From positions 1,789-65,788 of the forward strand of contig DAOWCY010000005.1 of NCBI GenBank assembly GCA_030639305.1: a stretch of 64,000 nucleotides of DNA, read 5' to 3'. Position numbers and translations under genes: made by a program. Source of the stretch: Candidatus Aminicenantes bacterium (GTDB lineage: Bacteria > Acidobacteriota > Aminicenantia > UBA2199). Below the pieces are notes generated by a model. The model had not been told where the DNA came from and ran no database searches. It worked only from the letters and a program-made list of their open reading frames with translations. Of the stretch, positions 14,309 through 54,235 are shown one piece after another; position 1 is the first letter of the stretch, and each line of letters opens with the position of its first letter.

Positions 14309-14328
14309 CATTGAAAAAGGAGTAAAAA

Positions 14329-16197
14329 ATGGAGCCAAAAGAATTATGCTGGAACAGTAGAACCGGTGAGAGCATTATAAAGGCAGACAGAGATTTTCGG
14401 GAAATTATTGGTTTTCTCGGCGTGAAAGACCCGGATAAGTTTATTATGGCGTTTTACTCTTACTTCGATAAAGAGACAAAAGCATTTATGCAGGTAATAA
14501 AAAAACTATTTGAAGAAATTAGACCGAAAAATTTTCAATGGCTCGATAAGGAGATCAGTTTCTCAGAAAATACGCCGGAGAAATCCCCGGAAAAGATACT
14601 GGAAGAATTACGAGATATTCCTGATTATCACAGCGGTGTTGTTACCCTCTTTGAACCCATAGACTACGGTTATGTTGACGAGATGAGAAAATATGGTTTT
14701 CATATGTCATTAACCAATTTATTTTCTTCTCGCAATTTTAAATTGTTTTTATTTGGAAACATTGCTTATGACCTCCATTACGTTCAACAAAACAGCCCAT
14801 TAAACCAGTATGTCAAAGAGTCTTATAAAATTTCCGGGTATAAAGATAATGAAATCAGATTTCTTTCAGCGGCCCAAAAAAATATTTTCAAAAAGATTTC
14901 AGATAAATGTGAAGATGGCTTCGATATTGTATCATTTGATGTTGTTTCGAGTCTCGAAAATTTCTGGGAAGAGATTAATTTAGAGAAACGGGTGGTGGAA
15001 TTGGTGGAAAGATTTATGGAAGTTCCTATTAAAACTGAAATTGAAAGACAAGCGATGAAAAAATTATCCGGTTTGCAACAGTTTTTGAAGAACAAGGGAG
15101 AACTGGTCAAGGGCCAAATAAAACCATCCGATGATGGGGGGAAAATCATTATGAATGTAAGTGGGGAGTCTGATCTATTTAAAGCCTATTTTGATAGGAC
15201 AGCCTTATTCAACATTGAAAGGATCGCGAGTGGTCAGAAGTATATATTTACCCCGAAAGAAATTTTCAAAGCGGTTTTCTCCAATAGTGATTTTATGAAT
15301 AAAAAGATAGATGTTCCACAAGAACCGGATGAAAAAACAAATGAAAAATTTAAACATATAGCAGATTTCTTTAAAGCCAGGAAACCTATGTTTTTATTGG
15401 GTACCGGGACATCATTGATGTCGGGAGCGCCGGACCACCAGAATTTTATCCGGCAAATATCGGGTATCGATAAAGACGACAAATTAAAACCTAAAGAGTT
15501 GTTCCTGGAGTTTGACAAATATATGGAGAAAATCGCAACAGTATTCGATATCAGGCAAAAAATGATTCCGCTGCTAAGTCAATTGAAACCCAGCATCGGT
15601 CACTTCTTCCTGGCTCAATTGGTCGAAAGGAAGTACACTGATGTTATAATAACTACGAATTATGATACCCTGATCGAAGATTCCCTGATGGATTTCGGTA
15701 TCAGATCAAGTAAATTTTTGAAAATCGTAGGAAGCACGGACAAAAAATGGGATTGGAAATGGGTGAATGATCTACAAGACGATCCCTTGAAAATTTTTAA
15801 GATATGTGGTGATGTATTACATGGGGAGAAGTTTGCCATAAAGTCCAAAGATGCAGAAACGTTTATATCAACGGCTGTTAAAGAATTGGAAACCATAATC
15901 AAAACCCCGAAACGAAATATGTTTATCATTTTAGGTCATGCGTTGAAGGAAAACAGTATTTTCGATTTGTTATTCAAATATAGTACCGAAAATACAGTTA
16001 TTGTTTATGTTAACTGCAACCCCTTTGAAGCAGCATTAGATAATGGGGAACCGTGTCCCGGTTTCAGGAAAGCTGTAAAGGCTAAAAAAATTAATAAAAA
16101 TGGTGCCAGAATATTTGAAATAGATAACCCGCATTACGGCCTATTTGATAATTTTATGGAACGCCTCTACCACGAATTGAAAGTCCCCGGCAAATAG
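14329..16197 (+). CDS. SIR2-like (SIR2_2 family) domain protein with a ~340-aa N-terminal domain of unknown function. Probable NAD+-consuming effector.
   Basis: RBS AAGGAG 10 nt upstream; 20-nt gap after the giant gene. SIR2_2 motifs MFLLGTGTSLMSGAPD, VIITTNYDTLIEDSL, VLHGE (catalytic His context) and MFIILGHAL. Confidence 0.75.
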   Translation: MEPKELCWNSRTGESIIKADRDFREIIGFLGVKDPDKFIMAFYSYFDKETKAFMQVIKKLFEEIRPKNFQWLDKEISFSENTPEKSPEKILEELRDIPDYHSGVVTLFEPIDYGYVDEMRKYGFHMSLTNLFSSRNFKLFLFGNIAYDLHYVQQNSPLNQYVKESYKISGYKDNEIRFLSAAQKNIFKKISDKCEDGFDIVSFDVVSSLENFWEEINLEKRVVELVERFMEVPIKTEIERQAMKKLSGLQQFLKNKGELVKGQIKPSDDGGKIIMNVSGESDLFKAYFDRTALFNIERIASGQKYIFTPKEIFKAVFSNSDFMNKKIDVPQEPDEKTNEKFKHIADFFKARKPMFLLGTGTSLMSGAPDHQNFIRQISGIDKDDKLKPKELFLEFDKYMEKIATVFDIRQKMIPLLSQLKPSIGHFFLAQLVERKYTDVIITTNYDTLIEDSLMDFGIRSSKFLKIVGSTDKKWDWKWVNDLQDDPLKIFKICGDVLHGEKFAIKSKDAETFISTAVKELETIIKTPKRNMFIILGHALKENSIFDLLFKYSTENTVIVYVNCNPFEAALDNGEPCPGFRKAVKAKKINKNGARIFEIDNPHYGLFDNFMERLYHELKVPGK

Positions 16198-28596: not shown

Positions 28597-31500
28597 TTAC
28601 CGGGTCAATTTGAGGGTGCGGCTGTCTTCGATGATATCTATTTTTCCCATATCCATTTTGATGACCCGGTCGGCCGCGTCGAAATAGTGGTCGTCATGGG
28701 TAATAGCGATTACTATTTTTCCTTCTTCTTTCATTCTCTGCAGCAGTTCGCGATAGAAAAAACGCCGGAACCCCGGGTCCTGGTCGGCTGCCACTTCATC
28801 GAACAGGTAAATGGGAGAGTCTTCCAAATAACACTGCATCAAGGCCAGGCGTTTCCTTTGCCCGCCTGAAAGTTCGATGGTGCTGAACTCATTATCTTCG
28901 AGCACAACTTTTTCTTGCAGGCGTAACATTTCCAGGTAATCATCGATTTCCTCTTCCCTGCCGGTTAGGTCTACGTTGTAGAGTTTCGCGAAAAGGTGGA
29001 AATCCCCGAATACTACGGAATAATGCTCGCCCAGGCGGAAATTATCGACTGCTTTGCCGTTGATTTCGATGCTGCCTTCGTCGGGGTGATACAGGCCGGT
29101 CAGCAGTTTCGCCAGGGTGGTTTTGCCGCTGCCGTTGCCGCCGATGATAAACACGATTTCACCTTTTCGGGCTTCGAAATCCATGGGGCCTACGGTGAAT
29201 TTTTCCACGTCGTCAACCGCGTCGTAGGTGAATTTTAATCCTTTGGCGCTGATGGTTTCCACGGACCGGGGTTTCTCGTGGTCCATGCCCTCTAAGACTT
29301 TAGGATCGATATTGGCCGGTATATCCCGTTTGAATCCCCTGATACGGTTCCAGGCTACGCGCATGCGCATAATGGCGGGGATGGCGTTCAACATGGCGTT
29401 GATGGGCCCGATTAGGAAGAGAAGCACCATGATAAAGGCCATCAGGGTGACTGGGGTGATGTTGGGGAATAACCGCGGGATACCGTAGCCTACGGCTCCC
29501 AGGACGATAATAAGCAGCGATTCGCCGATAAGAAAGGCGTTAACAAATTTGATCAGCGCGGTGCTCAATTTTTTACGGAAATCGTCGCAGGCGCGGGCAA
29601 CGTCGTTCCTATATTCTCTTTTCTTGTGGAATTGCAGGCTCAGTTCTTTGAAGCCGTCGATCATGCCGTTCAACAATCCCATGTAGATGTTCTGGGTATC
29701 CCTGGCTTCTTCGAAATATATCTGGGTACGGTGAGTTACGATGGTGTAGACAGTGGCGATCACTCCCACCACCAGCAGGGTAACGGCTGTGGCCCAAAAC
29801 GCGATGGTGGCCAGGAAAAAAAAAGCGCCCATGGTGGTAACGGCGCTGGTAACCAATTGTACCAGGATGTTGGCGGAGTTACCGATTTGCCCGGTATCGT
29901 CGTTCAACGTGGCAAAAACGCGACCTCTCTGGATTTTTTCAAATTTTTGGTAGGTGGTATAGAAGACTTTTTCCAGCAGGTCCAACCTCATGTCGTATAT
30001 AAGGTCGAAGGTAATGCGGATAAGTTTGGTTTGCAGTAATTTGCGGCCGGTTATATAGATGCAAAAAGCGAGACCGAAATTATACAATTGATAAAAGAGC
30101 CCGGCTTCGCTGAATACCGACCGGGTAACCAGGAAAATGACTGCCGCATTTGCTACACCGGCCAATAAGCTGAGTAGCAATACGAAAGGCAGGACCCGGA
30201 TATATTTGTTACGGTGAGGAAACAGGCCGGTGAGGATCGAGGTAAGATACCCGGCTGCCAGGGCAGTGAGAACAGCCGCGATGGCGACAGTGAAACTGAC
30301 GGGAGAAAACACCATGGCCGTGCGCATGGAGACGCCGGCTAAGGTTTTGGGTACGAAATAGAGGCCCAACAGGAAGGGGGCAAAAGCCGGGAGCGTTAGA
30401 AGCGCTTTGAATATTTTTTTCAAGGTAGGCGGGGCAAAGGTGCGTTTACCTCTAACTATGTCGATAAATACGGACACCCAGAAAACCACCACGGCCAGCA
30501 AAAACAATCCTATCATAATGGCTACGATAGAGCTGCCGTTATCGAGATCGTCACCCTGCAAATCGGGTTCCCGGAAGCCTCTTCCCCCGACATAACTCAT
30601 CAAACTTTCGGCAATAAAAGGGGTGAGAGCGCTGCTGCTGTTGGTCAGGACCGCCACCCCGGTTTTTTCCACCGGGTTAAGGATTATAAAACCGGTAAAA
30701 TTGGGATTATTACCGGCGTGATCGATGCGTTTCTCCCGCTCTAAGTAGATGTTCCAGCCGTAACCGTAAGCAGAAAGAGTGCGCCGGTTAAAATGCATGC
30801 TGTCATCCATGCGGTGGGATTTTTCTACCAGGGGGGCCAATCCCGTTTCTATTAGGCCCAGTTGTATCCGCAGCCAGCGGGCCATATCCACGCCGTTGGA
30901 TAAGATATACCCGGCTGCGTTGTTACCGCGGTATACCGGGGCGTCGCAGCGGCGCGCGGCAAAAAAGCCCGTTTTATAACCGGCGGCCATGTGCCCCGGT
31001 GGGTTTTCTTTGTCTACGCCCACCAGGGTGTTCGACAGCCCGGCGGGAGCCAGGATATTTTTTTCCATATAGTTTTCGAAACTCTTTTCCGTGACGGTTT
31101 CGATGACGAAGGCCACTACATCGTAATTGATAGTCGCATATTCGAAGCGTTGACCCGGTTTACTTTTCAATTCGATTCCCGATAATGCGCGGATTGTCTG
31201 CTGCAAGGCATCCGCGTCCGCGCTTTCGGGGATCAAAGAGATACTGCCGAAAGGAATGCCGCTGGTATGGTTTAAACAGTGTTTCAGCGTGACGTCCCGG
31301 TTTTTTTTGCCTTCGAATAGGGCGTAAAACCAGGGTAAATAGCGGTTTACCGGGGCGTCGAGATCGATAAGGCCCTGCTCTGCACAGTGCAGCGCGGCCA
31401 GCCCGGTAAAGGCTTTACTGCAGGATGCCAGTTCGAAAACCGTATTCGCGCTAACCGGTATTTTGTTTTCCCGGTCGGCATAACCATAACCTTTTATGAA

Positions 31501-31702
31501 CGGTTCTTCTTTCCCTTTGACGATAATAAGGCTCAATCCCGGGATAAGACCGTCTTTCATTAAGGAAAGTATTTCCCTGTCGATTTTTTCATAAAAATCT
31601 CCCGGTTTTTCTTCTTTTTCCCGGGAAACGGACGGTAGGCTGAACATAAACAGCACTACCAGAAACAATAAAATAGGGACATTGGATATTTTTGTTTTCA
31701 TT
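28597..31702 (-). CDS. Fusion of a ClbP/ZmaM-like S12 (beta-lactamase-fold) serine peptidase with a SyrD-type ABC exporter (permease plus ATPase).
   Basis: Start reassigned to the ATG at 31702 (RBS AAGGAG; MKTKISNVPILLFLVVLF signal), because the longer ORF start lies inside the repeat element. SxxK motif ASCSKAF and Y-x-N motif YATINYD. Multiple TM helices. Walker A GGNGSGKTT, LSGGQRKRLAL and LFDEVAADQDP (a cyclic-peptide-exporter hallmark). Confidence 0.7.
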
Positions 31703-31739
31703 ATATTGCTTAACTCCTTATAATTTTTTTTCTCTTTTT

Positions 31740-31925
31740 GCCTCCGGCGGCCCCACGCGCGTGGGGAGGCGTTAAGCCGCTTCGCGGCAGGACCCTGCCG
31801 GGGGCCAAACTTTTGAAAAAGTTTGATCAAAACTTTTGTTTATTTAGAATCAAAAGCGCTCACACGCTGCCTCTGCGGCGAAGCCGCTTATACCCTGCCC
31901 ACGTGGTGGGCTTTAAAATCCAAAG
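31740..31925. repeat. Copy of the GC-hairpin/REP-like repeat family (hairpin + GAGGCGTTAAGCCGCTTCGCGGCAGGACCC + inverted GATC-palindrome module + further hairpins).
   Basis: CCCCACGCGCGTGGGGAGGCGTTAAGCCGCTTCGCGGCAGG matches 3029-3076 and 3123-3171. GGGGGCCAAACTTTTGAAAAAGTTTGATCAAAACTTTTG is the reverse complement of 1151-1200 and 3208-3250. Confidence 0.5.
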
Positions 31926-42854: not shown

Positions 42855-44249
42855 CTATTCGTCTTCCAGGTCTTCATTGAATTCTTCCAACATCCGCCGT
42901 TTCTTTTCTCCGTCCAGCCTGCACAGTTCCTTGATCTCGATTTTTCCCAGGTCCTGCGTGAGCATCTGTTCCAGGCTGCGGGCAATCCCTTCGATTATTT
43001 CTTTTTCATACACCCTGCCATTATAATCCAACCGTAACGAAAGCTGCCTATCATAAGATACGTGCACTACAAAATCATAACTGGTATACTCGAAAGTTTC
43101 TACTCCCGATACCTGGAATAGCTGGCTGCGCCCCTGGGCGGCGGCTCCGGCTATCTTTTCACTTATGGGAAAATTCTGGGAAACGAAAATATGATCGAAT
43201 AAATCCCGTTTCATGGGGCTGACGGCCTGGATACTTGCCAAAGAACAATAATGATAAGGTTCGCTCGCCAGGATTTCCTGCTGCACCCGGCGCATTAACT
43301 CGATGAAGTTTTCCCTTTCCCGCACCCGGATGCGCATCGGAACAGTGTTGAGAAATAAGCCGATCATTCTTTCCACACCCTTTATTTCCGCGGGCCGGCC
43401 CGATACCACTGCGCCGAAAATAACATCCCGCTCACCTTTATATTTTCCTAAAACAAGACCCCAGGCTGTTTGCACAAGGGTATTTATTGTCACGGAATTT
43501 TTCCCTACCAGGTTGTTTAAGGCGGAGGTCTGTTCAGTTGTCAATAGGATAGTTACTCTCTGCCTATCGAATCCTCCCCCCCCGGAGGTGCGGGTTTCTA
43601 ACCGGGGGATAAAAGCCGGGGCATTATAATCTTCCAGGTAACTTGTCCAATAGGCCAGAGATTCGCGGATATCTCTTTTTCCCAGCCACTGGATGTAACT
43701 CTTAAAGGGTTTTACCGGGGCTAAATCCGGAGGCCTGTTTTCTAAAAAGCTCCTATAAATCTCCAGGTACTCGCCGATAATTATTCCCATACACCAACCA
43801 TCCATAATAATGTGAGGGTGGCTCCAGGTAAATTCGTATTCATCCCGGGCCAGTTTCACCACTGTGACCCGTATCAACACATCTTTGCTCAATACGAAAG
43901 GACGCTGCCTGTCCTGCTCTTTAATCTCTTTTACCCGGGCTTCTCGTTCGGCTTTAGTCTTTACACTGCCGACGTCCTCGTAGGTGAAATCGATTTTCCT
44001 CTCTTTCATCACTACTTGCACGGGCCGCTTAACCTTTTCATGGATAAAAACCGTGCGCAAAATATCATGGCGCTGCATTAGCGCTTTTAGACTTTTTTTG
44101 ACCGGTTCTATGTCGAGTTCGCCGTGAAGGCGGTATGATACTTGTTCAAAATACGCTCCGGCTGTGTCCCGGTTCAGGGAATAAAATAACATGCCTTCCT
44201 GCATGGGCGTTAAGGGATATATGTCTTCGATATTCGCTTTAGCTGCCAT
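42855..44249 (-). CDS. Free-standing condensation (C) domain protein.
   Basis: 464 aa. N-terminal DIYPLTPMQEGMLF and HHIIMDGW (HHxxxDG). RBS AAGGAGAAAAG. Confidence 0.8.
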   Translation of the reverse strand: MAAKANIEDIYPLTPMQEGMLFYSLNRDTAGAYFEQVSYRLHGELDIEPVKKSLKALMQRHDILRTVFIHEKVKRPVQVVMKERKIDFTYEDVGSVKTKAEREARVKEIKEQDRQRPFVLSKDVLIRVTVVKLARDEYEFTWSHPHIIMDGWCMGIIIGEYLEIYRSFLENRPPDLAPVKPFKSYIQWLGKRDIRESLAYWTSYLEDYNAPAFIPRLETRTSGGGGFDRQRVTILLTTEQTSALNNLVGKNSVTINTLVQTAWGLVLGKYKGERDVIFGAVVSGRPAEIKGVERMIGLFLNTVPMRIRVRERENFIELMRRVQQEILASEPYHYCSLASIQAVSPMKRDLFDHIFVSQNFPISEKIAGAAAQGRSQLFQVSGVETFEYTSYDFVVHVSYDRQLSLRLDYNGRVYEKEIIEGIARSLEQMLTQDLGKIEIKELCRLDGEKKRRMLEEFNEDLEDE

Positions 44250-44315: not shown

Positions 44316-47300
44316 TTATATATCTAATTGGTCCTCTATGGCGTCTATCTCCTCTAAGGATAACTCATTGTGCGTTAAATCGCTGGGGGTGAGCTCTTTG
44401 TCTTCTTTCGACGAACAAAAAGAGATAATGTTTTTTAATTCCTGTTCAAAATTTTCCAGGATCTGCGTGATGGTTTCATTTTTAAATTGTTTTTTGCTGT
44501 AATTTATGGACATTACCAACTGCCGGTTGGCAATCATGCCGTTTATATCGATGTCGAACTCCCGTACTCCTTCCGGGCTCATTGTGCGCCCGGAAGGTTC
44601 GGCGGCGGCACCGAAAGACCTCTTTTCCATGTCCGCGTCAAACTGGCCTAAGTAGTTGAAACTGACCTGGGGTTCTAATTTGAATTCTATGTCCTGCTTA
44701 TGCTTCCCGGGGGTCAAATATTTCAAAATCCCATACCCGATTCCCCGGTTGGGCGCCCGGCGTAAACTCTCTTTGACTTTCTTGATCGAGCTGGATAGAT
44801 CACTCCCGGATGATACATCTAAAATCACCGGGTAGATGGATGTAAACCAGCCTACGGTGCGGTTTATATCTACATGATCTAAAATTTCTTCCCGGCCGTG
44901 ACCTTCCAGGTTGACCAGCACCCTGCCGGAACCCGCCTGCTTGCTAAATGCCAGGCCCAAAGCGCAGAGCAGGATGTCGTTAATTTCAGTGTTGAAGGCT
45001 TCATTGACTTCGGTCAATAAAAGCCGGGTTTCTTCCTCCGCAAGCCGGAAATATCCGCTTAAGGTGTCTTTTATAAGATTATCCGCGCTTTCAAAATCGT
45101 AAGGGATAACCGGTATTTCCATGGACTCCAGGCCGGCCCAATACTCTTTTTCAACCAAAAATCCGGGGCTGGCGGCATATTCCGGCAACTGCCCGGCCCA
45201 GTATTTATAGGAGTCGGTTTTTAAGGGCAGGGAAAAAGACTCCCCCTTACTGAACTGGCGATAAAGGGTGTCGATGTCTTCAAAAAGAATACGCCAGGAA
45301 ATGCCGTCCGTTATTAGGTGATGAAGCACGATCAGCAGCCGGTCGCCGCCGGCTAACCGGAATAATCCCAATTTTAATAGGGGGCCTTTTTCCAAATCGA
45401 TGCTTGCCTGAATTTCGTCGGCTTTGGACAGCAGTTCCGCGGCGGCTTTTTCCTTATCTTCGATGGACCGGAAATCGAAGGTTTTCAAATCGAGAGGATA
45501 GTCGAGATCGTGATTTTCCAGGAAAATCCCGCCGCCTTCCCGGTGAATACTCATCCTGAGCGCGTCATGATGTTCCATTATCTTCTTAAATACGGCCCCG
45601 ACCGCTTCTTCGTCAAATCCTTCCGGCGAAGAAAGCATGACTGCCTGGTTATAATGGTGGGGGTGTATTGTAATTTTCTTGAAGAACTCTTCATGGGCGG
45701 GCAGCAGCGGCGCCCGGCCCGTGACCGGGGCCTGTTCGGGGATTCTTCCCGCTTCTTTGTGTTCCACTTTGTGAGCGAGATCGGTAATCACGGGGTTCTG
45801 GAAAACATCGCTTACTTTGATTTTATAACCTTCATTGTGCAGCCGCGAAACGATCTGGATGGCTTTAATGGAGTCGCCGCCGATCATAAAGAAATTCTCA
45901 TTCACACCGACTTCCTGCCGGCCCAATACGCTTTCCCAGACTTCGACCAGTTTGCTTTCTACTTCGCCTTCGGGTGCGGCATATTCTTCTTTTCTTTCGC
46001 TGCCTACCATGGCGGGGTCCGCCAGGGCGCGGCGGTCTATCTTCCCGGTGGTGGTCAGGGGGAGCTCTTTTAAAGGCACAAAATAGGCGGGGATCATGTA
46101 ATCGGGCAATTTCTCACCGAGGAATCGCCTTAATTCATAGTCCCCGGGGGCAGTGGAAATATCACCTGATGACCGGCGCGGCTCATTGGTGAATAATCCC
46201 TTGTACAGGGGCGTCCCTTTGTAGGTTTTCTCATGATAGGGCATGTTATACTCAAAGGCAATTTTCCGGCCGTCCTTTTTTTCCAGGTGGCCTTTTACTT
46301 TATAATCGGGCCAGGGTTCGCTGCTGCCGAGCGTGCGGATACAATCGGCTTCTATCCGGTCTCCTTTATCGACTTCCAGGGGTGGGGAAAAGGCGGGGAA
46401 ATAAACAGGTTTCCAGATATGCTCCTGGGCTAAGGTGTCGATCAGGTGGTCCGGTACGGTATAAAAATTAATCCAGAGGATAAATCCGTCTAATTTGGTT
46501 TCCCGCTTTATGGTCAGGTTGATCCGGTGGCTGGCTTCATTCTCTATGACGTCCTGAAAATTTATGTCTTCGAAAATACCGGCGTCGGATATGATGCCGG
46601 TTTTGGGTAGATGCTGGATACAAAGCCTGACATCGAATTCATAACCGAACTTTTCAAATATTTTCTCCGTGTATTCCCGGGAGGTAATGCTGAAGGCGGG
46701 TTCATCCCGCAGGGAACCGGGAAGGGTTACGGCCGCAATCTTAGTGACACAGTGGTGCGGGATGACATAACTCTTCTCCTTTAAAAACCGGCGGGCGTCG
46801 TTGTGAAGCACGATGCCGCCTTCCGAACTGCCGATGGAACCGATCTGGTTGGTTAGATTCACCTCCACTTTTTCGGGCAGCTCTACATCACGGGAATCAC
46901 CGTGGATCAATACGATCTTATCTTCCAGGCCGAATTTCTTAAGATTTTCTTTGGCTTTTAAATAGGATTCTTCCATAATTTCGATGGCGTAGACTTTTTC
47001 GGCTCCGGCATCCACTGCTAACCGGGCCAGTATCAGGTCTCTGCCGGTGCCTACTTCTACGACGGTTTTACCTTTTACTATCCGTTCGATGGCTATTTTA
47101 TAACTGTTGTTCTTTAACTTGTCATGGGCCATGGCATAGTACAAAAGATCGTCCCAGATTAAATAATCACCTGCCGAGGGCATCAATTCGGGATCTTTAT
47201 CCGCTTCATATACATAGTATGCGCAGATGAATTTACTGCCGTCTTCTCCTTCTTTGATTACCGCGGCTGCTTCCTTTATAGATTCATGCTGCGATAACCG

Positions 47301-50300
47301 GTTCTCGATCTCTCCTAATTCGATGCGGTAACCCCTGAGCTTGACCTGGTGGTCCGTCCGGCCTAAAAATTCGATTTCCCCGGTGGGCAGCCAACGGGTA
47401 ATATCACCGGTTTTGTATAATTCTTGCCTCCGGCGGGTCAGAACCTTTTTGAAAAAAGGTTCCGACACCTCCAAAAACTTTCGATGAGCGGCTCCGCCGC
47501 GGATAAAACGCTCTGCGGTGAGCTCGGGGTGGTTTAAATAACCGCGGGATACGCCGGCTCCGGCTATGTACAACTCACCGGGTACGCCTACCGGCAGGAG
47601 ACGCAAATCCCCACCCAGTACAAAACATTGCACATTGGCGATGGGCGTTCCCAGGTTTACCTTCTCACCGGGGGAACATTTTCCGCGCAGGGTGTCGATG
47701 GTGGTTTCGGTGGGGCCGTAATGGTTATATAATTCATACCCTTTGGCGATTAAACTGTCTTTGAGGGCGTCATCGAGCCTGTCACCTCCTGATATCACCG
47801 CCCGTAAACTGGAGAATTGCCCCTGCTGTTCATCCGCCAGCAGGGTTCTCAGGGTGGCGGGTACAAAATTGATGATGGTGATGCGGTTCTCTTCGATATA
47901 ACGGGAGAAGTCTTCCCTGTTGGAGATTAATTCCTTGTGGGGCATGTATACCGACGCGCCGCGGTGCAGGGCGCTGAATATCTGCTCTACGCTGGGATCG
48001 AAGGTGAAACCGGTCAACTGGATGATCCGGTCTTCTTCACGGAGATCGTAAGCTTCGGCAAACCAGTGCAGTACATTGACTACATTTTTGTGTTCCACGA
48101 CGACGCCTTTGGGGGCGCCGGTCGATCCGGAGGTGTACATGATATAGGCGGGCAGGGTTGGTTCCACGGGGAACCCCGGGTTGGCGACGGACTGCTTACT
48201 TAATGTTTCGCTTAATGTGTCGGCCATCAAAATTTGCCTGGCAAACCGGTAACTCTTTTGCGATGTCCGGGGCGCAAAGGCAATGCCGTCGATTTTTTCC
48301 AGTTCTTCCCGGCCGGGAAGCCGGCCTGAATTTTCCAGTATCTTTTCTATAATTTCCAGGAAAGTGACTTCCCCTTCGCTTAGCACGGCTAAATCTATAT
48401 TACGGTCCTGCAGTAGGGGCGCCGTGTTGCGGGTGGCATAAGGGCCGCCGGCAATCAATGGCCCGGCGAAACCCCACTGCCGTATCAATGAGATGGTTTT
48501 ATGGAAAAAATCCTTGTAAAAGGTTAAGGTGCGCACACCGATAACATCAGGTTGAAAATCATCCAAGAGGGTTTTTAAGTCTTCATAATTGTCGAAATCG
48601 ATGCGGGATTTGATTATTTTGCCGTTGATTTCACTGCCTAACTGTTCCTGCAAATAGGTCAATATATATATGGGACCCAGGGGTGGTTCCACTACATCAT
48701 ACAACATATCCGTGTCCCAACTGAAAAATTGAGACAAATCGACCAATAACAACTTCAACGCATCTTCCGCGGGTTGATGGGCCGGGAAAGCGCTGCGCAA
48801 TTTTCGATTCAATTCGGGAACGGCAAAATTTTCTTCCTCTAAAAAGCTTTCGATTCCTAAGTCCGCTTCATCTATCCCGGCCAGGTCCAATATATCGGAA
48901 AAACTATCGATTCCCGAGGGCAGGTAACTGTCATACTTCTGCACGATTTCATCTTCGGTCAGCACCCTGGCCTGGTAAGGGAGCACATGACGCAGCCGCT
49001 CTTTGTTAAGAAAATAATCATTGAGGAATTCAGCCTGGTAATTTTTGGTGAAGCTTTCGCTGAATGGGGATGTGGGCGAATATTCATGTAATGCCAGGTC
49101 TTCGCATTTTAAAATATCTTCGCGCAATACGCCGTGCTCCATGGCCAGGTCGGCCATCTCGGTGCCGGGGTATATCTTTAATATAAATACATAAGGGAAA
49201 TGAAGCCATTCCTGCTCTTTAATGAATTCCAGGGTCAACCGGGCTTCCTCTTCGGTTTCCGTGGGAAAACCGTGGATAGTGAACAACTCTAACACTACCT
49301 GGGGGTACTTTTTGCAGAAGTATTCCACGTTCTCACGAAATTTTTCCAGGTGTAAATTTTTGTCGATCATCTTCTGCAGGCGGGGGGATGCGGTTTCTAA
49401 GGCCATGGCCGTGGTCGCCAGCCCTGCTTCCACCAGCAGGTCGATATAGTCCTTATTCAATAGATCGCCGCGCAGCCCGTTGGGGAAAAATAGCTGTATA
49501 TCCAGGTTGCTTTTGATGATTTTTTCGAAGAGTTTTTCGCCGTTCTTCAAGTTGATGTTGAAGATGTCGTCGAAGATGGAAAAACGGCGGAACCCCATGT
49601 CATAATATAGTTGTAATTCTTCGAAGATATTCTCCGCGGTGCGGAAGGTGTGCTTGCGGGGCCATACTTTACTGCAGTAGAAGCAGTTATAGGGGCAGCC
49701 GCGGGCTGTTTGCAGGGAAATGATGTTCTTCACCATTACCTGGCCGATGTAGCGGTTGTATTTTTCATAATCGACTAAAGAACGATCCGGTATGGGCAGG
49801 GAATCCAGGTTGGCCAGGGGTTTCCTGGGGCAGGTGGTATGAATAGGAACACTGCGCTCTTCCAGGCCCTGCAAAGAGGTAAAGGAATGATCCGAAAACA
49901 CTTTGCCGTGGGTCAACAAATGGGAGGCGCTGCTGTCTTCCAGCATGGTGACCGCACGCTGCTTCGGCATCTGCGGGTCCATGGGCAGGTAAGCTCCCCC
50001 GGCTTTCATTATGCCTAACATCCCGGTTACTAAATCCGTGGAACGTTCTTGCATAAGGCCGACGACACTATTCGCGGTAACGCCCCGGTCTTTCAAATAG
50101 TGGGCCAGGCGGTTGGATTCTTCATTCAATTCCCGGTAGGTAAGAGTGCGGCGCCCGGCGTTGATATCCGGGTTTTTTTCCTGCGCATCCGGCTGAGCGG
50201 ATGCCCCGGCGGGGAGGTCCGGCGCGGCGACGGCTGTATTTCCCGGTGTCTTCTCCACCTGTTCCTCGAAGAGCTGGTGAATGGCTTTGTCGATGGGATA

Positions 50301-51116
50301 CTCCCGGTGCGTGTCGTTAAATTCCACCAGCAGTTGTTTTATCTCTGCTTCGGAAAGCATCTCCAGTTGGTTCGTTTTTTGGCTAACGTCGCTCAGGGCA
50401 TTCAGCAGCAGGTGTGAAAAATGAGACATCAACCGGGCCATGGTTTCCTCCCGGTATAGAGTAGGATGGTATTCCAGGACTGTTTCTATCCTGTCATCTA
50501 CCCTAAAAAAAGAAAAAAGGACGGCGGGCCCGGTATGCCGGATATGTTTTTTATCGTGGATGTTTTCTAATAAAAGGGCGGTATCGAACAAGGGGAAGCG
50601 GTCGCCGGAGGCGGGCATATTCAGTTTATACAATAAGGTGCTCATGGGGTAATTCTGGTTCTCCTCCGCTTCGGTAATGGTGCGCCTGACATCGAGCAGC
50701 AGGTCTTTAAAAGTCATATCTTCCCGCAGCCGGTTCCTTAAAGGCAAAACTGTGTTGATAAACTCCCCATCTATCTCCTGTTTGTAGATCGGGGCGCCGG
50801 TTATTATGTCGCTGCGCCCTGTATATTTATGTATGGTCAGCACCAACCCGGCGGTCAAAATCATAAATAACCGGGAGTCGGATTTATTGCTTAACTTCAG
50901 CAGGGAAGAGACAAGTTCACCGGGCAATGTAATGGGCATCGAAGCTGTCTCTTTATCGCCTTTTCCCTTTTCGCCTTCCCCATAGTCCGCGGGGAAACTG
51001 TTTTTTTCCAAATCCAAAGGAAAGCCGGACAATTTCTCCAGCCAGTAATCTCCTTCTTTAGTCAATTGACCGGCTGCGACTTGCAGTTCGCCATCATATT
51101 GTATATTTTTCTTCAT
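44316..51116 (-). CDS. NRPS with the order [N-terminal half-C] - A(interrupted twice) - T - E. A radical-SAM core plus a B12-binding-like domain sits between motifs A2 and A3, and a PRMT-like methyltransferase sits between A8 and A9.
   Basis: A1/A2 (LTYRELNEESNRLAHYL, LKAGGAYLPMDP), then CPYNCFYC, then AYIMYTSGSTGAPKGV (A3) ... VKLRGYRIELGEIE (A8), then the MT (VVEVGTGRDL), then A9/A10 (LPDYMIPAYF...GKIDRRAL), then T (IGGDSI), then E domain (HHLITDGISW). Confidence 0.85.
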   Translation of the reverse strand: MKKNIQYDGELQVAAGQLTKEGDYWLEKLSGFPLDLEKNSFPADYGEGEKGKGDKETASMPITLPGELVSSLLKLSNKSDSRLFMILTAGLVLTIHKYTGRSDIITGAPIYKQEIDGEFINTVLPLRNRLREDMTFKDLLLDVRRTITEAEENQNYPMSTLLYKLNMPASGDRFPLFDTALLLENIHDKKHIRHTGPAVLFSFFRVDDRIETVLEYHPTLYREETMARLMSHFSHLLLNALSDVSQKTNQLEMLSEAEIKQLLVEFNDTHREYPIDKAIHQLFEEQVEKTPGNTAVAAPDLPAGASAQPDAQEKNPDINAGRRTLTYRELNEESNRLAHYLKDRGVTANSVVGLMQERSTDLVTGMLGIMKAGGAYLPMDPQMPKQRAVTMLEDSSASHLLTHGKVFSDHSFTSLQGLEERSVPIHTTCPRKPLANLDSLPIPDRSLVDYEKYNRYIGQVMVKNIISLQTARGCPYNCFYCSKVWPRKHTFRTAENIFEELQLYYDMGFRRFSIFDDIFNINLKNGEKLFEKIIKSNLDIQLFFPNGLRGDLLNKDYIDLLVEAGLATTAMALETASPRLQKMIDKNLHLEKFRENVEYFCKKYPQVVLELFTIHGFPTETEEEARLTLEFIKEQEWLHFPYVFILKIYPGTEMADLAMEHGVLREDILKCEDLALHEYSPTSPFSESFTKNYQAEFLNDYFLNKERLRHVLPYQARVLTEDEIVQKYDSYLPSGIDSFSDILDLAGIDEADLGIESFLEEENFAVPELNRKLRSAFPAHQPAEDALKLLLVDLSQFFSWDTDMLYDVVEPPLGPIYILTYLQEQLGSEINGKIIKSRIDFDNYEDLKTLLDDFQPDVIGVRTLTFYKDFFHKTISLIRQWGFAGPLIAGGPYATRNTAPLLQDRNIDLAVLSEGEVTFLEIIEKILENSGRLPGREELEKIDGIAFAPRTSQKSYRFARQILMADTLSETLSKQSVANPGFPVEPTLPAYIMYTSGSTGAPKGVVVEHKNVVNVLHWFAEAYDLREEDRIIQLTGFTFDPSVEQIFSALHRGASVYMPHKELISNREDFSRYIEENRITIINFVPATLRTLLADEQQGQFSSLRAVISGGDRLDDALKDSLIAKGYELYNHYGPTETTIDTLRGKCSPGEKVNLGTPIANVQCFVLGGDLRLLPVGVPGELYIAGAGVSRGYLNHPELTAERFIRGGAAHRKFLEVSEPFFKKVLTRRRQELYKTGDITRWLPTGEIEFLGRTDHQVKLRGYRIELGEIENRLSQHESIKEAAAVIKEGEDGSKFICAYYVYEADKDPELMPSAGDYLIWDDLLYYAMAHDKLKNNSYKIAIERIVKGKTVVEVGTGRDLILARLAVDAGAEKVYAIEIMEESYLKAKENLKKFGLEDKIVLIHGDSRDVELPEKVEVNLTNQIGSIGSSEGGIVLHNDARRFLKEKSYVIPHHCVTKIAAVTLPGSLRDEPAFSITSREYTEKIFEKFGYEFDVRLCIQHLPKTGIISDAGIFEDINFQDVIENEASHRINLTIKRETKLDGFILWINFYTVPDHLIDTLAQEHIWKPVYFPAFSPPLEVDKGDRIEADCIRTLGSSEPWPDYKVKGHLEKKDGRKIAFEYNMPYHEKTYKGTPLYKGLFTNEPRRSSGDISTAPGDYELRRFLGEKLPDYMIPAYFVPLKELPLTTTGKIDRRALADPAMVGSERKEEYAAPEGEVESKLVEVWESVLGRQEVGVNENFFMIGGDSIKAIQIVSRLHNEGYKIKVSDVFQNPVITDLAHKVEHKEAGRIPEQAPVTGRAPLLPAHEEFFKKITIHPHHYNQAVMLSSPEGFDEEAVGAVFKKIMEHHDALRMSIHREGGGIFLENHDLDYPLDLKTFDFRSIEDKEKAAAELLSKADEIQASIDLEKGPLLKLGLFRLAGGDRLLIVLHHLITDGISWRILFEDIDTLYRQFSKGESFSLPLKTDSYKYWAGQLPEYAASPGFLVEKEYWAGLESMEIPVIPYDFESADNLIKDTLSGYFRLAEEETRLLLTEVNEAFNTEINDILLCALGLAFSKQAGSGRVLVNLEGHGREEILDHVDINRTVGWFTSIYPVILDVSSGSDLSSSIKKVKESLRRAPNRGIGYGILKYLTPGKHKQDIEFKLEPQVSFNYLGQFDADMEKRSFGAAAEPSGRTMSPEGVREFDIDINGMIANRQLVMSINYSKKQFKNETITQILENFEQELKNIISFCSSKEDKELTPSDLTHNELSLEEIDAIEDQLDI
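46046..47129 (-). other. Class I SAM methyltransferase with PRMT-like features, embedded between A8 and A9 of the same A domain.
   Basis: Motif I VVEVGTGRDLILARLAVDAGAEKVYAIE. The post-motif II/III region resembles protein arginine methyltransferases (IVLIHGDSRDVELPEKVEVNLTNQIGS). Confidence 0.5.
48116..48689 (-). other. B12-binding-like (Rossmann) domain following the embedded radical-SAM core, in permuted order relative to canonical class B enzymes.
   Basis: PLGPIYILTYL...FQPDVIGVRTL...PLIAGGPYAT...IDLAVLSEGE parallels the B12-domain motifs of the stand-alone enzyme (LLTLLPFWAPL...PALVGFSVF...VIMGGGVFS...FIGEGE). Confidence 0.45.
48836..49799 (-). other. Radical-SAM core domain embedded inside the NRPS adenylation domain.
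   Basis: The codons for TARGCPYNCFYCS were verified on the DNA at ~49660-49697. They are preceded by DSLPIPDRSLVDYEKY, as in class B radical-SAM enzymes. Confidence 0.65.
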
Positions 51117-51330: not shown

Positions 51331-53046
51331 TCAAAAATCAAAGTCGCCTTCTTCTTGCAATTGACTGCGGGCCTCCACCAACTTTATAACCCCGCCGGTA
51401 TCATCGATATAACCGGCTCCCTTTTCAAATTCCATAATCGACGGAACTGCATTCTTCTGCAGCTTTTCCCAGCGCCGGTCCGCCCGGTAAAGGTCGTACA
51501 TGGTAAAAGGATTGGGGATCCCCAAAGATTCACAGTGCTCCACGAACCGGTACATGCGCCGGTACACTTCCTCCCTGGAGGGTTCACATTCGGGATACCA
51601 GGTCTGGATAATCAACATCTCCTTCATCCAGGCGGGATAAAGCAGGTAGGTCTTCTCCTCCCAGCCGTTCATGCCGGCCTGGGCCGAAGGGTAATAGTAA
51701 AAGGGACATGCCCAGACTTCATAAATATCATCTTTTAACGTTTCAACCATATCCAGGGTCAATTGGAAATCTTCCTCGGTTTCACCGGGGTGGCCGATAA
51801 TCCAACAGGTTGAGGTCTTAATGCCGGCACGGGCCAGGCTGGATACCGCTTGCTGAATTTGATTGGGGGTGATCTTTTTATTCATCAGTTCCAACACCCT
51901 GGGAGAGGCGCTCTCGAGACCCAATTTCGCTTTGTAAAAACCGCCCCGGCGCCATAACAACGTGTTTTCGATATCACAGACATGTTTATCCGCACGCAGG
52001 TAACCGTCCCAGTACATGATTTTACCGGAGTTAATAAACTCCCGGGACAGATCGTGAACCACGGGATTGAGCAAGGAATCGCACATCAGGAATAACTGTT
52101 GACCGTATTTTTCATATAATCCCGTCATTTCGGAAACGATCTGGGGGGCGCTCTTTTTACGGTACTTACCATAAAAAACGGTCTCGGAACAAAAGCTGCA
52201 TTGAAAGGGACAACTGCGCGAGGTGTAGGCTGCGACAAACGGGTACTGGCCGATGTCGAAATCGGAATAATCGGGCAGGGCGACCGTGGAAAGATCCAGG
52301 GTCTTAGAGCCGATGTCGGCCAGGGTATACACTCTCTGCTCCGCGGGCAGCCGGTCTTCCAGGTAGTCCAGGAACAGCTTCTCGCCTTCCCCGATGAAAA
52401 TTTTATCCACATAGGGGGCTTTCTCCAGGAAAAAATCCAGGTTGGGAGAACCCAAAGCAAGCTGCTCCGAAAAAACACCGCCGCCCATAATGACGTTGAT
52501 ATCCGGGTTTTTCGCTTTGGTTAACCGGGCGGCGAAAAGAGAGGCGGGCAGGGTGCTTTCAAATACGGAAAAGCCTACCAAAGCGGGTTTTTCGCGTTCC
52601 AGCAGGGCGGTGAACCAGCGCTCCAAACGGGTATAAAAATCGGCAAGAACACGGTTTAAACGCCGCACCACCGTGTCATCGATTTCGCAGAAGAAAGTCT
52701 TCTGCACCAGGATGCGAATCGCATGGTTGTACTTTTCGGCGTCTTTTTTTTCGTCATCTTCCAGGTAAGCCATCATGTGGTTTTGCAGCACATCTTTTCC
52801 GACTACATAAAAGTTGCCCCATTTTTCAGCGGGAACGACCTCTTTCAAAAGATCGAAATAAACAGCGCTGAAATCGCGGAATTCCTCCGCCGCGTTCCCG
52901 TCAAAAGTGGCGACGGTGAAGTTCCGCTCCTGTAAAAAGCTCTTCAGGTTGGCGATTCCCACGGGAGGAATCAATGGGGCCCAAAAGGGCAGTAAGGTTA
53001 GGAGAATTTTCTCCCGGCCTTTTCCAGGTTTAGAATGAGAAGTCAT
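51331..53046 (-). CDS. Stand-alone class B (B12-binding) radical SAM enzyme. Probable C-methyltransferase or other B12-rSAM tailoring enzyme.
   Basis: N-terminal B12-binding-like domain followed by the radical-SAM core SRSCPFQCSFCSE. Start placed at ATG 53046 (MTSHS...), which has an AGGAGG RBS and a 17-nt overlap with the upstream gene. C-terminal tail EEGDFDF. Confidence 0.8.
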   Translation of the reverse strand: MTSHSKPGKGREKILLTLLPFWAPLIPPVGIANLKSFLQERNFTVATFDGNAAEEFRDFSAVYFDLLKEVVPAEKWGNFYVVGKDVLQNHMMAYLEDDEKKDAEKYNHAIRILVQKTFFCEIDDTVVRRLNRVLADFYTRLERWFTALLEREKPALVGFSVFESTLPASLFAARLTKAKNPDINVIMGGGVFSEQLALGSPNLDFFLEKAPYVDKIFIGEGEKLFLDYLEDRLPAEQRVYTLADIGSKTLDLSTVALPDYSDFDIGQYPFVAAYTSRSCPFQCSFCSETVFYGKYRKKSAPQIVSEMTGLYEKYGQQLFLMCDSLLNPVVHDLSREFINSGKIMYWDGYLRADKHVCDIENTLLWRRGGFYKAKLGLESASPRVLELMNKKITPNQIQQAVSSLARAGIKTSTCWIIGHPGETEEDFQLTLDMVETLKDDIYEVWACPFYYYPSAQAGMNGWEEKTYLLYPAWMKEMLIIQTWYPECEPSREEVYRRMYRFVEHCESLGIPNPFTMYDLYRADRRWEKLQKNAVPSIMEFEKGAGYIDDTGGVIKLVEARSQLQEEGDFDF

Positions 53047-54235
53047 CGTCCTCCTCTTTAGACATTTTCGACTCCGCTTTAACAAATTTTGTGCGGGGTT
53101 CGACTTTTTTCGGTTTTACTGTATCTAAATATTTTAAATCGAAATTAATATCCTTTGCCAGTTTCTCCAGCAGTCCCGGCGGGGGATCGAGTTCCAGGTC
53201 TTCCAGGGCCTGTTCCCGGGTCATTTCCCCGGCCCTGACAATAGTGGAATATTCATCGTGGTAGTGGGTGTATTTCCTGATCTTCATATCCCGCACCGAG
53301 TTGAGCCAGATCATTTCGCAGTTGGTGGTGCGGGCCGGGAAACCGGAACCTTCTTCCAATGGCTCCCAGTCGAATCTAGCTTTGCATATTTTTTTCAATT
53401 CTTCCTTGTCGGTTTTGTAGAATTTGAATACGAAAAATGGGATGAATAATATTTTTTCAGGATCTACCGGTTTTTCCAGGTCCCTGCGGTCCTGGTAAAT
53501 GACCTGCTGATTCAACACGGCCCATTTTTTAGTGAATTGATCGAGAAAATCGGTATCGCCGCTGTCCAGGATGACATTAATCATCTTACTATACCAGTCC
53601 CGGGCTTTTTTTTCGTCATGCATCATGGCGGTCTGCCCTTTGGAGTAACCGTTGATCACCAGCGGGACATTAAAATTAGCGGCGATTTCCAGGCCGTTGA
53701 GATACAACATATTGCCGCAGGGGAAACAGGGGCTGACGTCGGGTTCGGTGGACTCGTTAAAAATCTTAAAGAGCCGCCTCATGAACTTTAACTCATTCTT
53801 CCAGATCAGCAGATCGACATCCAGTTCCTTGCAGAGTTTTTCCACGTTGCGCGTGGCAATGGGGTCGTCCCAGCCGTGGTCGCTGTGAAAAACCATGGGC
53901 TTTAAACCGAAATCCTCAACGATGCGGATCAGGGTAAAACAACTGTCTACTCCACCGCTCAAGGGGACCAGCAGGTCATATTTACGCCCCAGGTTCTTGT
54001 ACTTCTGTAAAGCGGCTTTAACCTCTTCTTCGCTTTGAAAGCGTTCCGGTTCCCGTTCTTTTTCCCCGGCGTCGAAAGTGTGACAGATATTACATACGCC
54101 GTTTTCATCAAAGGTAATTCCCGGATAGGTCTCCGGTAATACACATCTTGTACATACTTGCATGGTATGCCTCCTTGTTTTTTTAATTTTTACCATTACA
54201 TGGCGGTATCGATGAGCATGTTCGACATAGTTCAC
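53030..54235 (-). CDS. PP-loop ATP pyrophosphatase of the N-acetyl-sugar-amidotransferase-like (WbuX/WbpG-type) family.
   Basis: N-terminal Zn-ribbon CTRCVLPETYPGITFDENGVCNICH and the PP-loop SGGVDS motif. C-terminal tail EEDDDFSF. Confidence 0.7.
   Translation of the reverse strand: MNYVEHAHRYRHVMVKIKKTRRHTMQVCTRCVLPETYPGITFDENGVCNICHTFDAGEKEREPERFQSEEEVKAALQKYKNLGRKYDLLVPLSGGVDSCFTLIRIVEDFGLKPMVFHSDHGWDDPIATRNVEKLCKELDVDLLIWKNELKFMRRLFKIFNESTEPDVSPCFPCGNMLYLNGLEIAANFNVPLVINGYSKGQTAMMHDEKKARDWYSKMINVILDSGDTDFLDQFTKKWAVLNQQVIYQDRRDLEKPVDPEKILFIPFFVFKFYKTDKEELKKICKARFDWEPLEEGSGFPARTTNCEMIWLNSVRDMKIRKYTHYHDEYSTIVRAGEMTREQALEDLELDPPPGLLEKLAKDINFDLKYLDTVKPKKVEPRTKFVKAESKMSKEEDDDFSF

Follow-up and report, generated by a model that had tools for sequence, protein, structure and literature searches.

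A permuted radical SAM and B12-type unit inserted in a nonribosomal peptide synthetase adenylation domain from Candidatus Aminicenantes

Adenylation (A) domains of nonribosomal peptide synthetases (NRPSs) can be interrupted by other domains at the recognised sites a2-a3, a6-a7 and a8-a9 (PMC8341866). Without exception the inserts catalogued there are domains of polar chemistry, namely class I methyltransferases and others (ketoreductase, KR; oxidase, Ox), and bioinformatic work has also revealed di-interrupted A domains (PMC8341866). Interrupted A domains provide natural examples and engineering templates for added chemistry in NRPS modules. Here we describe an A domain from a 64,000-nucleotide stretch (the window, to which the coordinates below refer) of the Candidatus Aminicenantes bacterium contig DAOWCY010000005.1. 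In this A domain, encoded by the open reading frame (ORF) 44316-51116 of the minus strand, motifs A2 and A3 are separated by a unit consisting of a radical S-adenosylmethionine (SAM) core, a helical bridge and a B12-binding-type Rossmann domain. The unit is a new type of insert for interrupted A domains and represents a permuted branch of the class-B-type radical SAM enzymes; its conserved B12-type domain suggests methylcobalamin-dependent C-methylation.

An N-terminal B12 domain is the 'largely conserved' architecture of cobalamin radical SAM enzymes, with Mmp10 noted as an exception (PMC8950095). In discodermin, an NRPS product, Ala and Val residues are C-methylated by the stand-alone cobalamin radical SAM enzyme DscE; the 2025 discodermin paper called the pairing of an NRPS with a radical SAM C-methyltransferase 'an unusual enzyme combination' and described no in-cis domain (PMC12858407). 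The initial annotation of the locus stated that no precedent was known for a radical SAM insert, and the literature bears this out. Neither the 2020 catalogue of interrupted A domains (PMC8341866) nor a 2024 review mentions radical, B12 or cobalamin, and no description of a radical SAM domain inside or fused to an A domain was found in the full-text literature, a search that did not extend to subscription-only papers, so that absence is not proof.

The interrupted A domain and its insert

The ORF comprises 2266 codons with a single, terminal stop and no internal stop across 6.8 kb, and the source record, a 72.8-kb metagenome scaffold in ENA, carries the identical gene call. The 2266-aa product is composed of the C-terminal lobe of a condensation (C) domain, an A-domain piece with motifs A1-A2, the radical SAM core, bridge and B12-type domain, an A-domain piece with A3-A8, a methyltransferase of the PRMT fold, the last A-domain piece with A9-A10, a carrier (T) domain and an epimerisation (E) domain. 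A motif scan combined with the translation showed that all ten A-domain motifs are kept, in order and in one reading frame. They start at amino acids (aa) 325 (A1), 992 (A3), 1039 (A4), 1131 (A5), 1180 (A6), 1234 (A7), 1252 (A8), 1670 (A9) and 1690 (A10); motif A2, KAGGAYLPMDP, was read in the translation at aa ~380-390. The three A-domain pieces correspond to aa 263-424 (49845-50330), aa 975-1305 (47202-48194, with the specificity code DPENIGHID(K)) and aa 1650-1710 (45987-46169, delimited by motif scan), all on the minus strand.

The distance between A2 and A3 is ~600 aa, as compared with ~60 aa in the uninterrupted A domains of the window, which corresponds to a net insert of ~540 aa; the initial annotation, which had placed a ~560 aa insertion here within one ORF, was thus essentially correct. 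Alignment with three uninterrupted A domains of the window revealed two regions without counterpart, ~aa 403-974 and aa 1306-1649. Both inserts occupy recognised interruption sites, the radical SAM-B12 unit at A2-A3 and the PRMT-fold methyltransferase at A8-A9; the second is not described in the initial annotation. In a Pfam scan of the ORF the AMP-binding match was broken into two stretches around the Radical_SAM match, and the match to TIGR01733 (411.8 bits, cut-off 317.4) was likewise split in two.

The unit (aa ~425-965; 48222-49844, minus strand) is homologous from end to end to stand-alone enzymes of ~550 aa. Its radical SAM core (aa 470-632; 49221-49709) was recognised by PF04055 with E = 5.6e-19 and 69.4 bits (cut-off 29.5), in agreement with the earlier assignment, and has the partial TIM-barrel fold. 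The [4Fe-4S] motif CxxxCxxC was found by motif scan as CPYNCFYC at aa 474-481 (C474/C478/C481; 49674-49697), and the two strings quoted earlier for this region, DSLPIPDRSLVDYEKY and ARGCPYNCFYCS, are present in the translation at aa 438-453 and aa 471-482, respectively. A helical bridge (aa ~669-784; 48765-49112), seen as helices at insert residues 263-352 of the AlphaFold2 (AF2) model and kept in all relatives, connects the core to the Rossmann domain (aa ~786-949; 48270-48761), which carries the motifs EPPLGPIY, PDVIGVRT, GGPYAT and SEGE. The AF2 model of the insert is of high confidence (predicted local distance difference test, pLDDT, 91.9; predicted template modelling score, pTM, 0.90).

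The nearest structural relatives of the Rossmann domain are the cobalamin domains of CysS, TsrM and TokK, and its fold and motifs match those of the cobalamin domains of TokK, CysS, TsrM and MetH. A profile built from the Rossmann segment alone found the TokK cobalamin domain with E 5.7e-4, with the GGP and GEGE motifs aligned, and CysS weakly (E 0.078). When the insert was scanned alone, PF02310 (B12-binding) matched aa ~811-922 over model positions 13-120 of 121 (E = 1.5e-6), at a score a little under its cut-off, and the same family is recorded for 118 of the 120 closest relatives. The initial annotation had proposed a B12-binding-like segment with the same motif layout as in the stand-alone B12-radical SAM enzyme encoded next door (51331-53085). 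The B12-type fold finds good independent support, and the likeness to the neighbour found little: in the pairwise comparison the two radical SAM cores aligned (E 4e-13), and between the B12 parts the matches were short, in swapped order and individually insignificant.

Over its first ~245 residues the insert matches solely B12-binding radical SAM families of NCBIfam, at model positions ~160-400 (ladderane-type, PhpK, Sden_1168, BchE, ApyD, HpnJ, BzaD and AprD4). The top matches, with E values of 1e-17 to 2e-23, are all to B12-radical SAM families and every one is far below its cut-off; since no model comes near its cut-off, the family of the insert is not a curated one. The N-terminal B12 domain of the KedN5 methylase model (positions 17-156) is matched by insert residues 388-528, and because of this alignment the order radical SAM-then-B12 can be regarded as a true circular permutation of the class B enzymes. 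In the canonical order the B12 domain is N-terminal to the radical SAM core, and here the core precedes the B12-type domain; we therefore describe the insert as a permuted relative and not as a canonical class B member. The permuted order had already been called unusual, which is right with respect to class B; insertion into the A domain as its source was rejected, as the stand-alone ~550-aa relatives have the identical order. The same order, radical SAM first and cobalamin domain C-terminal, is found in Mmp10, the methyl-coenzyme M reductase arginine C-methyltransferase, the sole cobalamin radical SAM enzyme for which it had been noted before (PMC8950095). Beyond the generic radical SAM core no specific sequence or fold similarity of the insert to Mmp10 was detected, and the unit is apparently a second such arrangement, independent of Mmp10.

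All three cysteines of the cluster motif are invariant across 121 sequences, as are GGP and EGE across 54 Rossmann segments; judged by these alignments, conservation of the Rossmann domain equals that of the catalytic core. Of 107 columns with a conservation of 90% or more, the window copy keeps the consensus residue in 104, the three departures being S-to-T, F-to-L and a G-to-S change in GEGE; it is a maintained enzyme, not a relic. It is very improbable that the insert is a decayed or structural relic, or that the fusion arose from an assembly error or frameshift. Such an origin could be suspected because the window derives from a metagenome assembly, an otherwise invariant Glu is missing from the second insert and the N-terminal C domain is truncated. 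It is contradicted by the uninterrupted reading frame, by the retention of all cluster cysteines among the conserved columns and by the occurrence of the identical architecture in independent assemblies from many phyla. The possibility of a separate gene joined by a frameshift, raised in the initial annotation, fails on the same grounds, as the architecture recurs in the independently assembled locus L004 and in dozens of genomes. Taken together, these explanations are effectively refuted.

Occurrence of the unit and specificity of its hosts

A search with the insert alone yielded 1,602 relatives, of which the best 120 cover 95-100% of the insert at 48-76% identity. Most of these 120 stand alone, with a length of 540-580 aa, as in [Clostridium] polysaccharolyticum; in the free-standing relatives the N-terminus precedes the CxxxCxxC motif by ~55-70 residues, and the B12-type segment is C-terminal. 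A genome scan with one genome per species identified 425 relatives. Seventy-nine loci were examined, their domains were mapped with references derived from the window, and each unit was classed by its flanking domains. Fifty-nine units were located at A2-A3, between an A1-A2 piece and an A3-A8 piece, six stood in line immediately before a T domain, and 21 were free-standing. Among the hosts of the A2-A3 units were Aminicenantes, Deferrimicrobium, Omnitrophota, Clostridia, Bacteroidales, Halothermothrix, SAR324, Chloroflexota, Elusimicrobia, Planctomycetales, Spirochaetales, Melioribacteraceae and the cultured Desulfosediminicola flagellatus IMCC35005, and the host A domains of embedded units had intact A motifs and recognisable specificity codes.

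In a profile search of 1.84 billion cluster representatives, 6,409 matches were obtained at E <= 1e-30. The best 150 are nearly all of synthetase size (median 2,865 aa), some with two units. Among the 148 units in these best 150 clusters, motif A3 came next in 120 (with A2 also upstream in 103) and a T domain in 13. Homologous interrupted A domains, for which a database search had been suggested, thus exist, and the window copy is not a one-off but belongs to a large and widespread class. Locus L004 encodes a 2269-aa synthetase with exactly the architecture found in the window, together with three free paralogues, and in C. polysaccharolyticum a free unit gene follows the gene of an A-T protein and precedes a canonical B12-radical SAM gene. 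Placement before T, and as a free gene beside A-T, is what is expected of a carrier-directed tailoring domain.

At L007, L010, L025, L028 and L037 the unit lies after a complete A domain, directly before T. Four of the pre-T modules have the code CVQYIAHVV, in which Cys replaces the usual Asp235. Free proteins of ~725 aa consisting of an A1-A2 stub and the unit were also encountered (L085, 5802-10175 of that locus; P0015, P0024, P0027, P0028 and P0044). The pre-T and stub forms suggest repeated excision and insertion of a cassette made up of A1-A2 and the unit. In Pelagibacteraceae (SAR11-type), free-standing members are encoded in a NeuB (nonulosonic acid) glycan cluster (L074, 2009-16612 of that locus; L057-L061 and L066), where their neighbours include a stand-alone AMP-binding enzyme, LuxE, LuxC, a formyltransferase and a SPASM radical SAM protein. 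Because of these members, the permuted family has a second, non-NRPS role, again beside an adenylating enzyme. A neighbour-joining tree placed the marine glycan-cluster forms apart from an NRPS-associated clade, in which embedded, pre-T and free forms were intermixed; the tree carries no support values, and we make no claim as to the number of independent insertion events.

These distributions bear on the question of which substrate the unit uses. It may act on something other than the residue of its own module, such as the upstream peptidyl chain, the residue of a neighbouring module or a free amino acid before adenylation. The free-standing paralogues and the stub-unit proteins in the same clusters must work in trans, the Pelagibacteraceae members work outside NRPSs, and DscE modifies the finished peptide (PMC12858407). 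However, the position of the unit inside A, or between A and T, in ~130 independent clusters fits a role in cis, and the association of second inserts with particular specificity codes points to module-specific chemistry. We consider action on another substrate unlikely.

To characterise the hosts, the nine variable Stachelhaus positions of 55 interrupted A domains were read from an alignment anchored on the core motifs, and amino acids were assigned from textbook codes. Eleven domains have the Thr code DFWNIGMVH, and ten have the Pro-type code DVQFIAHVV. The others to which an amino acid could be assigned were Ile (3), Glu (2), Lys-like (2), Tyr-like (2), Gln (1), Leu (1) and Asn (1), and 22 of the 55 codes were unfamiliar. 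The sample is biased towards Thr and Pro. The code of the window A domain, DPENIGHID(K), matches no textbook code known to us; its acidic residues at positions 239 and 331 might, as a guess, indicate a basic substrate. A close variant, DPENIGQID, was seen in one other radical SAM-interrupted A domain (L071). Because the host codes are so varied, the occurrence of a common unit argues for a target that is shared by amino acids, for instance the beta C-H, and not for one particular side chain.

Proposed reaction and its alternatives

C-methylation of the residue activated by the host A domain is the best-supported hypothesis for the function of the unit. We put at roughly 55 per cent the probability that the insert is a functional tailoring domain, a permuted relative of class B radical SAM enzymes placed at the permissive a2-a3 site, which C-methylates the carrier-tethered residue. 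The sequence analysis shows what the domains are, that they are intact, permuted and conserved, where the unit is inserted and that it recurs; in the envisaged reaction we infer cobalamin binding, methyl transfer, the tethered state of the substrate and the carbon that is attacked. The A domain (code DPENIGHID) would adenylate its amino acid and load it onto the downstream T domain, the phosphopantetheine arm of which would bring the aminoacyl (or peptidyl) thioester to the radical SAM site. The [4Fe-4S] cluster on C474/C478/C481 would reductively cleave SAM, and the resulting 5'-deoxyadenosyl radical would take a hydrogen from an unactivated sp3 carbon. The unit is shared by host A domains of diverse specificity, and our best guess for this carbon is therefore C-beta. 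The substrate radical would then gain a methyl group from methylcobalamin held in the C-terminal Rossmann domain, and a second SAM would re-methylate the cobalamin. Thereafter it would be the turn of the PRMT-fold and E domains and of the C domain downstream. In class B methylation one S-adenosylhomocysteine and one 5'-deoxyadenosine are formed per methyl group (PMC8950095). The substrates of TokK, ThnK and CysS contain pantetheine, and CysS may use an intermediate bound to an NRPS carrier (PMC8950095). As these enzymes use such substrates, the precedent fits a domain sited beside T.

Several observations weigh against C-methylation. The PF02310 match of the window copy (26-28 bits) lies just under the cut-off of 32.1. 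The closest solved structure by sequence is that of AprD4, the similarity (E 2e-12, 21% identity) being confined to the radical SAM core. AprD4 is a non-methylating diol dehydratase and its B12-like domain is not known to bind cobalamin. Furthermore, the NCBIfam scores of the insert fail to separate the methylases (PhpK, Sden_1168, KedN5) from the non-methylases (BchE, AprD4, HpnJ). Finally, no Val-, Ser- or Gly-coded A domain with the unit was present in the sample of 55, in which numbers are small; this absence is unexpected if beta-methylation is fully generic.

The match to AprD4 as the best sequence hit in the PDB and the lack of separation by the family models are also what could be expected if the unit were an active radical SAM enzyme that subjects the tethered residue to a different radical reaction. 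Candidates are desaturation, dehydration or deamination, cyclisation or cross-linking, and rearrangement, with the Rossmann domain either free of cobalamin or using it for non-methyl chemistry. The score of the insert with NF033070, the model of AprD4-type dehydratases, was 64.2 bits, the cut-off being 500. On the other side, the Rossmann domain is strongly conserved and its GGP and GEGE motifs align with those of the cobalamin domains of TokK and CysS, which argues for cofactor binding, and most characterised class B enzymes are methylases. We regard non-methyl chemistry as the main alternative, clearly behind C-methylation in likelihood. A radical epimerase was also considered and is unlikely, as the module already has an E domain of its own.

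Other features of the cluster and comparison with known systems

The second insert (aa 1306-1649; 46170-47201, minus strand) gave weak Pfam matches to PRMT5 and Methyltransf, and was identified as a PRMT-fold SAM methyltransferase by AF2 modelling (pLDDT 91.8) and Foldseek, which found PRMT6, CARM1 and PRMT8 at template modelling scores of 0.68-0.73 and E ~1e-23. It has the full-length PRMT fold, with Rossmann domain and beta-barrel, a type that is not among the catalogued methyltransferase inserts. Members of the family are rare (19 relatives), and at three positions where these do not vary the window copy carries R30K, S117T and E118N. The last two fall in a loop with the consensus SE..GSIGGSEG, which we read as the counterpart of the PRMT double-E loop; the window copy has TN in place of the first SE, whereas 19/19 relatives keep the Glu. 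Judged by these substitutions, the second insert of the window may have altered specificity or be inactive. We also considered that the acidic residues at positions 239 and 331 of the window code, the PRMT-fold insert and an analogy to Mmp10 might point to C- and N-methylation of arginine. This idea was rejected as unsupported, since the same PRMT-fold insert occurs in relatives with Tyr-like codes, specific similarity to Mmp10 is lacking and the first loop Glu is lost in the window methyltransferase.

The upstream gene at 53030-54235 (minus strand) encodes a 401-aa WbuX-like PP-loop amidotransferase of the 'N-acetyl sugar amidotransferase' type, with a CxxC...CxxC pattern and the SGGVDS motif; it has no Pfam match, its TIGR03573 score (162 bits) is under the cut-off of 203, and its true start is likely to be Met25, near nucleotide 54163. 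Kinship between this protein and the second insert was rejected, as BLAST showed no relation. WbuX-like homologues were found as A8-A9 inserts in seven radical SAM-interrupted A domains with the code DPWY[FIL]GT[IV]N, and also within several A domains that have Asn or Gln codes and lack the radical SAM unit. The WbuX-like insert is another undescribed type of interrupted A domain, and particular second inserts pair with particular specificity codes.

The T domain with its GGDS motif (aa 1722-1782, the motif at aa 1746; 45771-45953) was recognised by PF00550 (48.7 bits), and the E-type condensation-family domain (aa 1811-2252; 44361-45686) by PF00668 and TIGR01720 (171 bits). The motif scan located the sole HHxxxDG of the ORF in the latter, as HHLITDG at aa 1932; the motif is missing from the N-terminal C-lobe (aa 1-262; 50331-51116), which aligns solely to residues 223-458 of a full C domain (42855-44249). 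As ~20 related synthetase ORFs at other loci likewise start with a C-lobe alone, the lobe looks like a conserved feature and not a truncation; docking, or service as a platform for the A domain, are possible roles.

The stand-alone B12-radical SAM enzyme (51331-53085, minus strand), encoded directly upstream of the synthetase, has the canonical order, with B12 at aa 160-212 and radical SAM at aa 288-446; its matches include models of C-methyltransferases of the RiPP type (RiPPs being peptides made by ribosomes and modified post-translationally; TIGR03975). The cluster has two different cobalamin-type radical SAM enzymes, one in trans and one in cis. Its remaining genes encode further NRPSs, a KS-AT-KR-ACP-TE polyketide module and, on the border of the NRPS/polyketide cluster, a 1077-aa fusion of a beta-lactamase-family (serine hydrolase) domain with an ABC ATPase (28597-31830, minus strand), which may be an export, resistance or peptidase component. 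Positions 1-26000 of the window have a G+C content of 36-44%, as against 48-56% in the cluster. They include a gene for a 2405-aa protein with a C-terminal AAA/STAND-type ATPase (7091-16197, plus strand) that is followed by a SIR2-like protein; the two look like a defence-system pair.

As to the wider significance, we give about even odds to the view that the unit is the first recognised radical SAM/cobalamin tailoring domain acting in cis in NRPSs, representing a large hidden class of well over 100 distinct clusters, mainly from uncultured bacteria (Aminicenantes, Deferrimicrobium, Omnitrophota, Clostridia and Bacteroidales among them), in which unactivated carbons of Thr, Pro, Ile and other residues are modified by radical chemistry on the carrier and whose lineage has in addition taken up PRMT-fold and WbuX-like PP-loop domains as A-domain inserts. 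If so, the unit would allow the assembly line itself to functionalise C-H bonds of unactivated carbons, would explain how some NRPS products might come by RiPP-like C-methylations and would offer a portable in-cis cassette for engineering. Its presence in A domains of many specificities indicates that it may be a fairly general tool, and its frequency in bacteria that have not been cultured points to an extensive set of peptides not yet explored chemically. The PRMT-fold and PP-loop inserts would, on the same proviso, greatly enlarge the repertoire of interrupted A domains.

The closest described systems are TioN and MarQ, of families 3 and 4 of the interrupted A domains (PMC8341866). As in the window synthetase, a foreign SAM-using tailoring domain resides in the a2-a3 region of an intact A domain, within one polypeptide, and presumably acts on the T-tethered residue. 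The inserts of TioN and MarQ are class I Rossmann methyltransferases of ~270 aa that perform polar (SN2) N- or S-methylation, whereas the insert described here is a three-part radical SAM, iron-sulfur and B12-type enzyme of ~540 aa. Two inserts at two sites are also found in the di-interrupted family 7, A2-Mb-A3...A6-Ms-A7 (PMC8341866). The window A domain differs in its sites, a2-a3 and a8-a9, and in carrying a radical SAM-B12 unit together with a PRMT-fold methyltransferase, in whose stead relatives can have a WbuX-like PP-loop domain, instead of two class I methyltransferase domains.

With CysS, TokK and ThnK the unit shares the class B radical SAM core, and its Rossmann GGP and GEGE motifs align with those of TokK and CysS. 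In these enzymes, which stand alone, the B12 domain is N-terminal; in the unit the order is radical SAM, helical bridge, B12, and the whole is built into a synthetase. Cobalamin radical SAM C-methylation of unactivated side-chain carbons in peptides is known from DscE, PoyB/PoyC and the bottromycin methylases. In contrast to these enzymes, which act in trans, DscE on the finished peptide, the unit described here is part of the synthetase itself and thus in cis.

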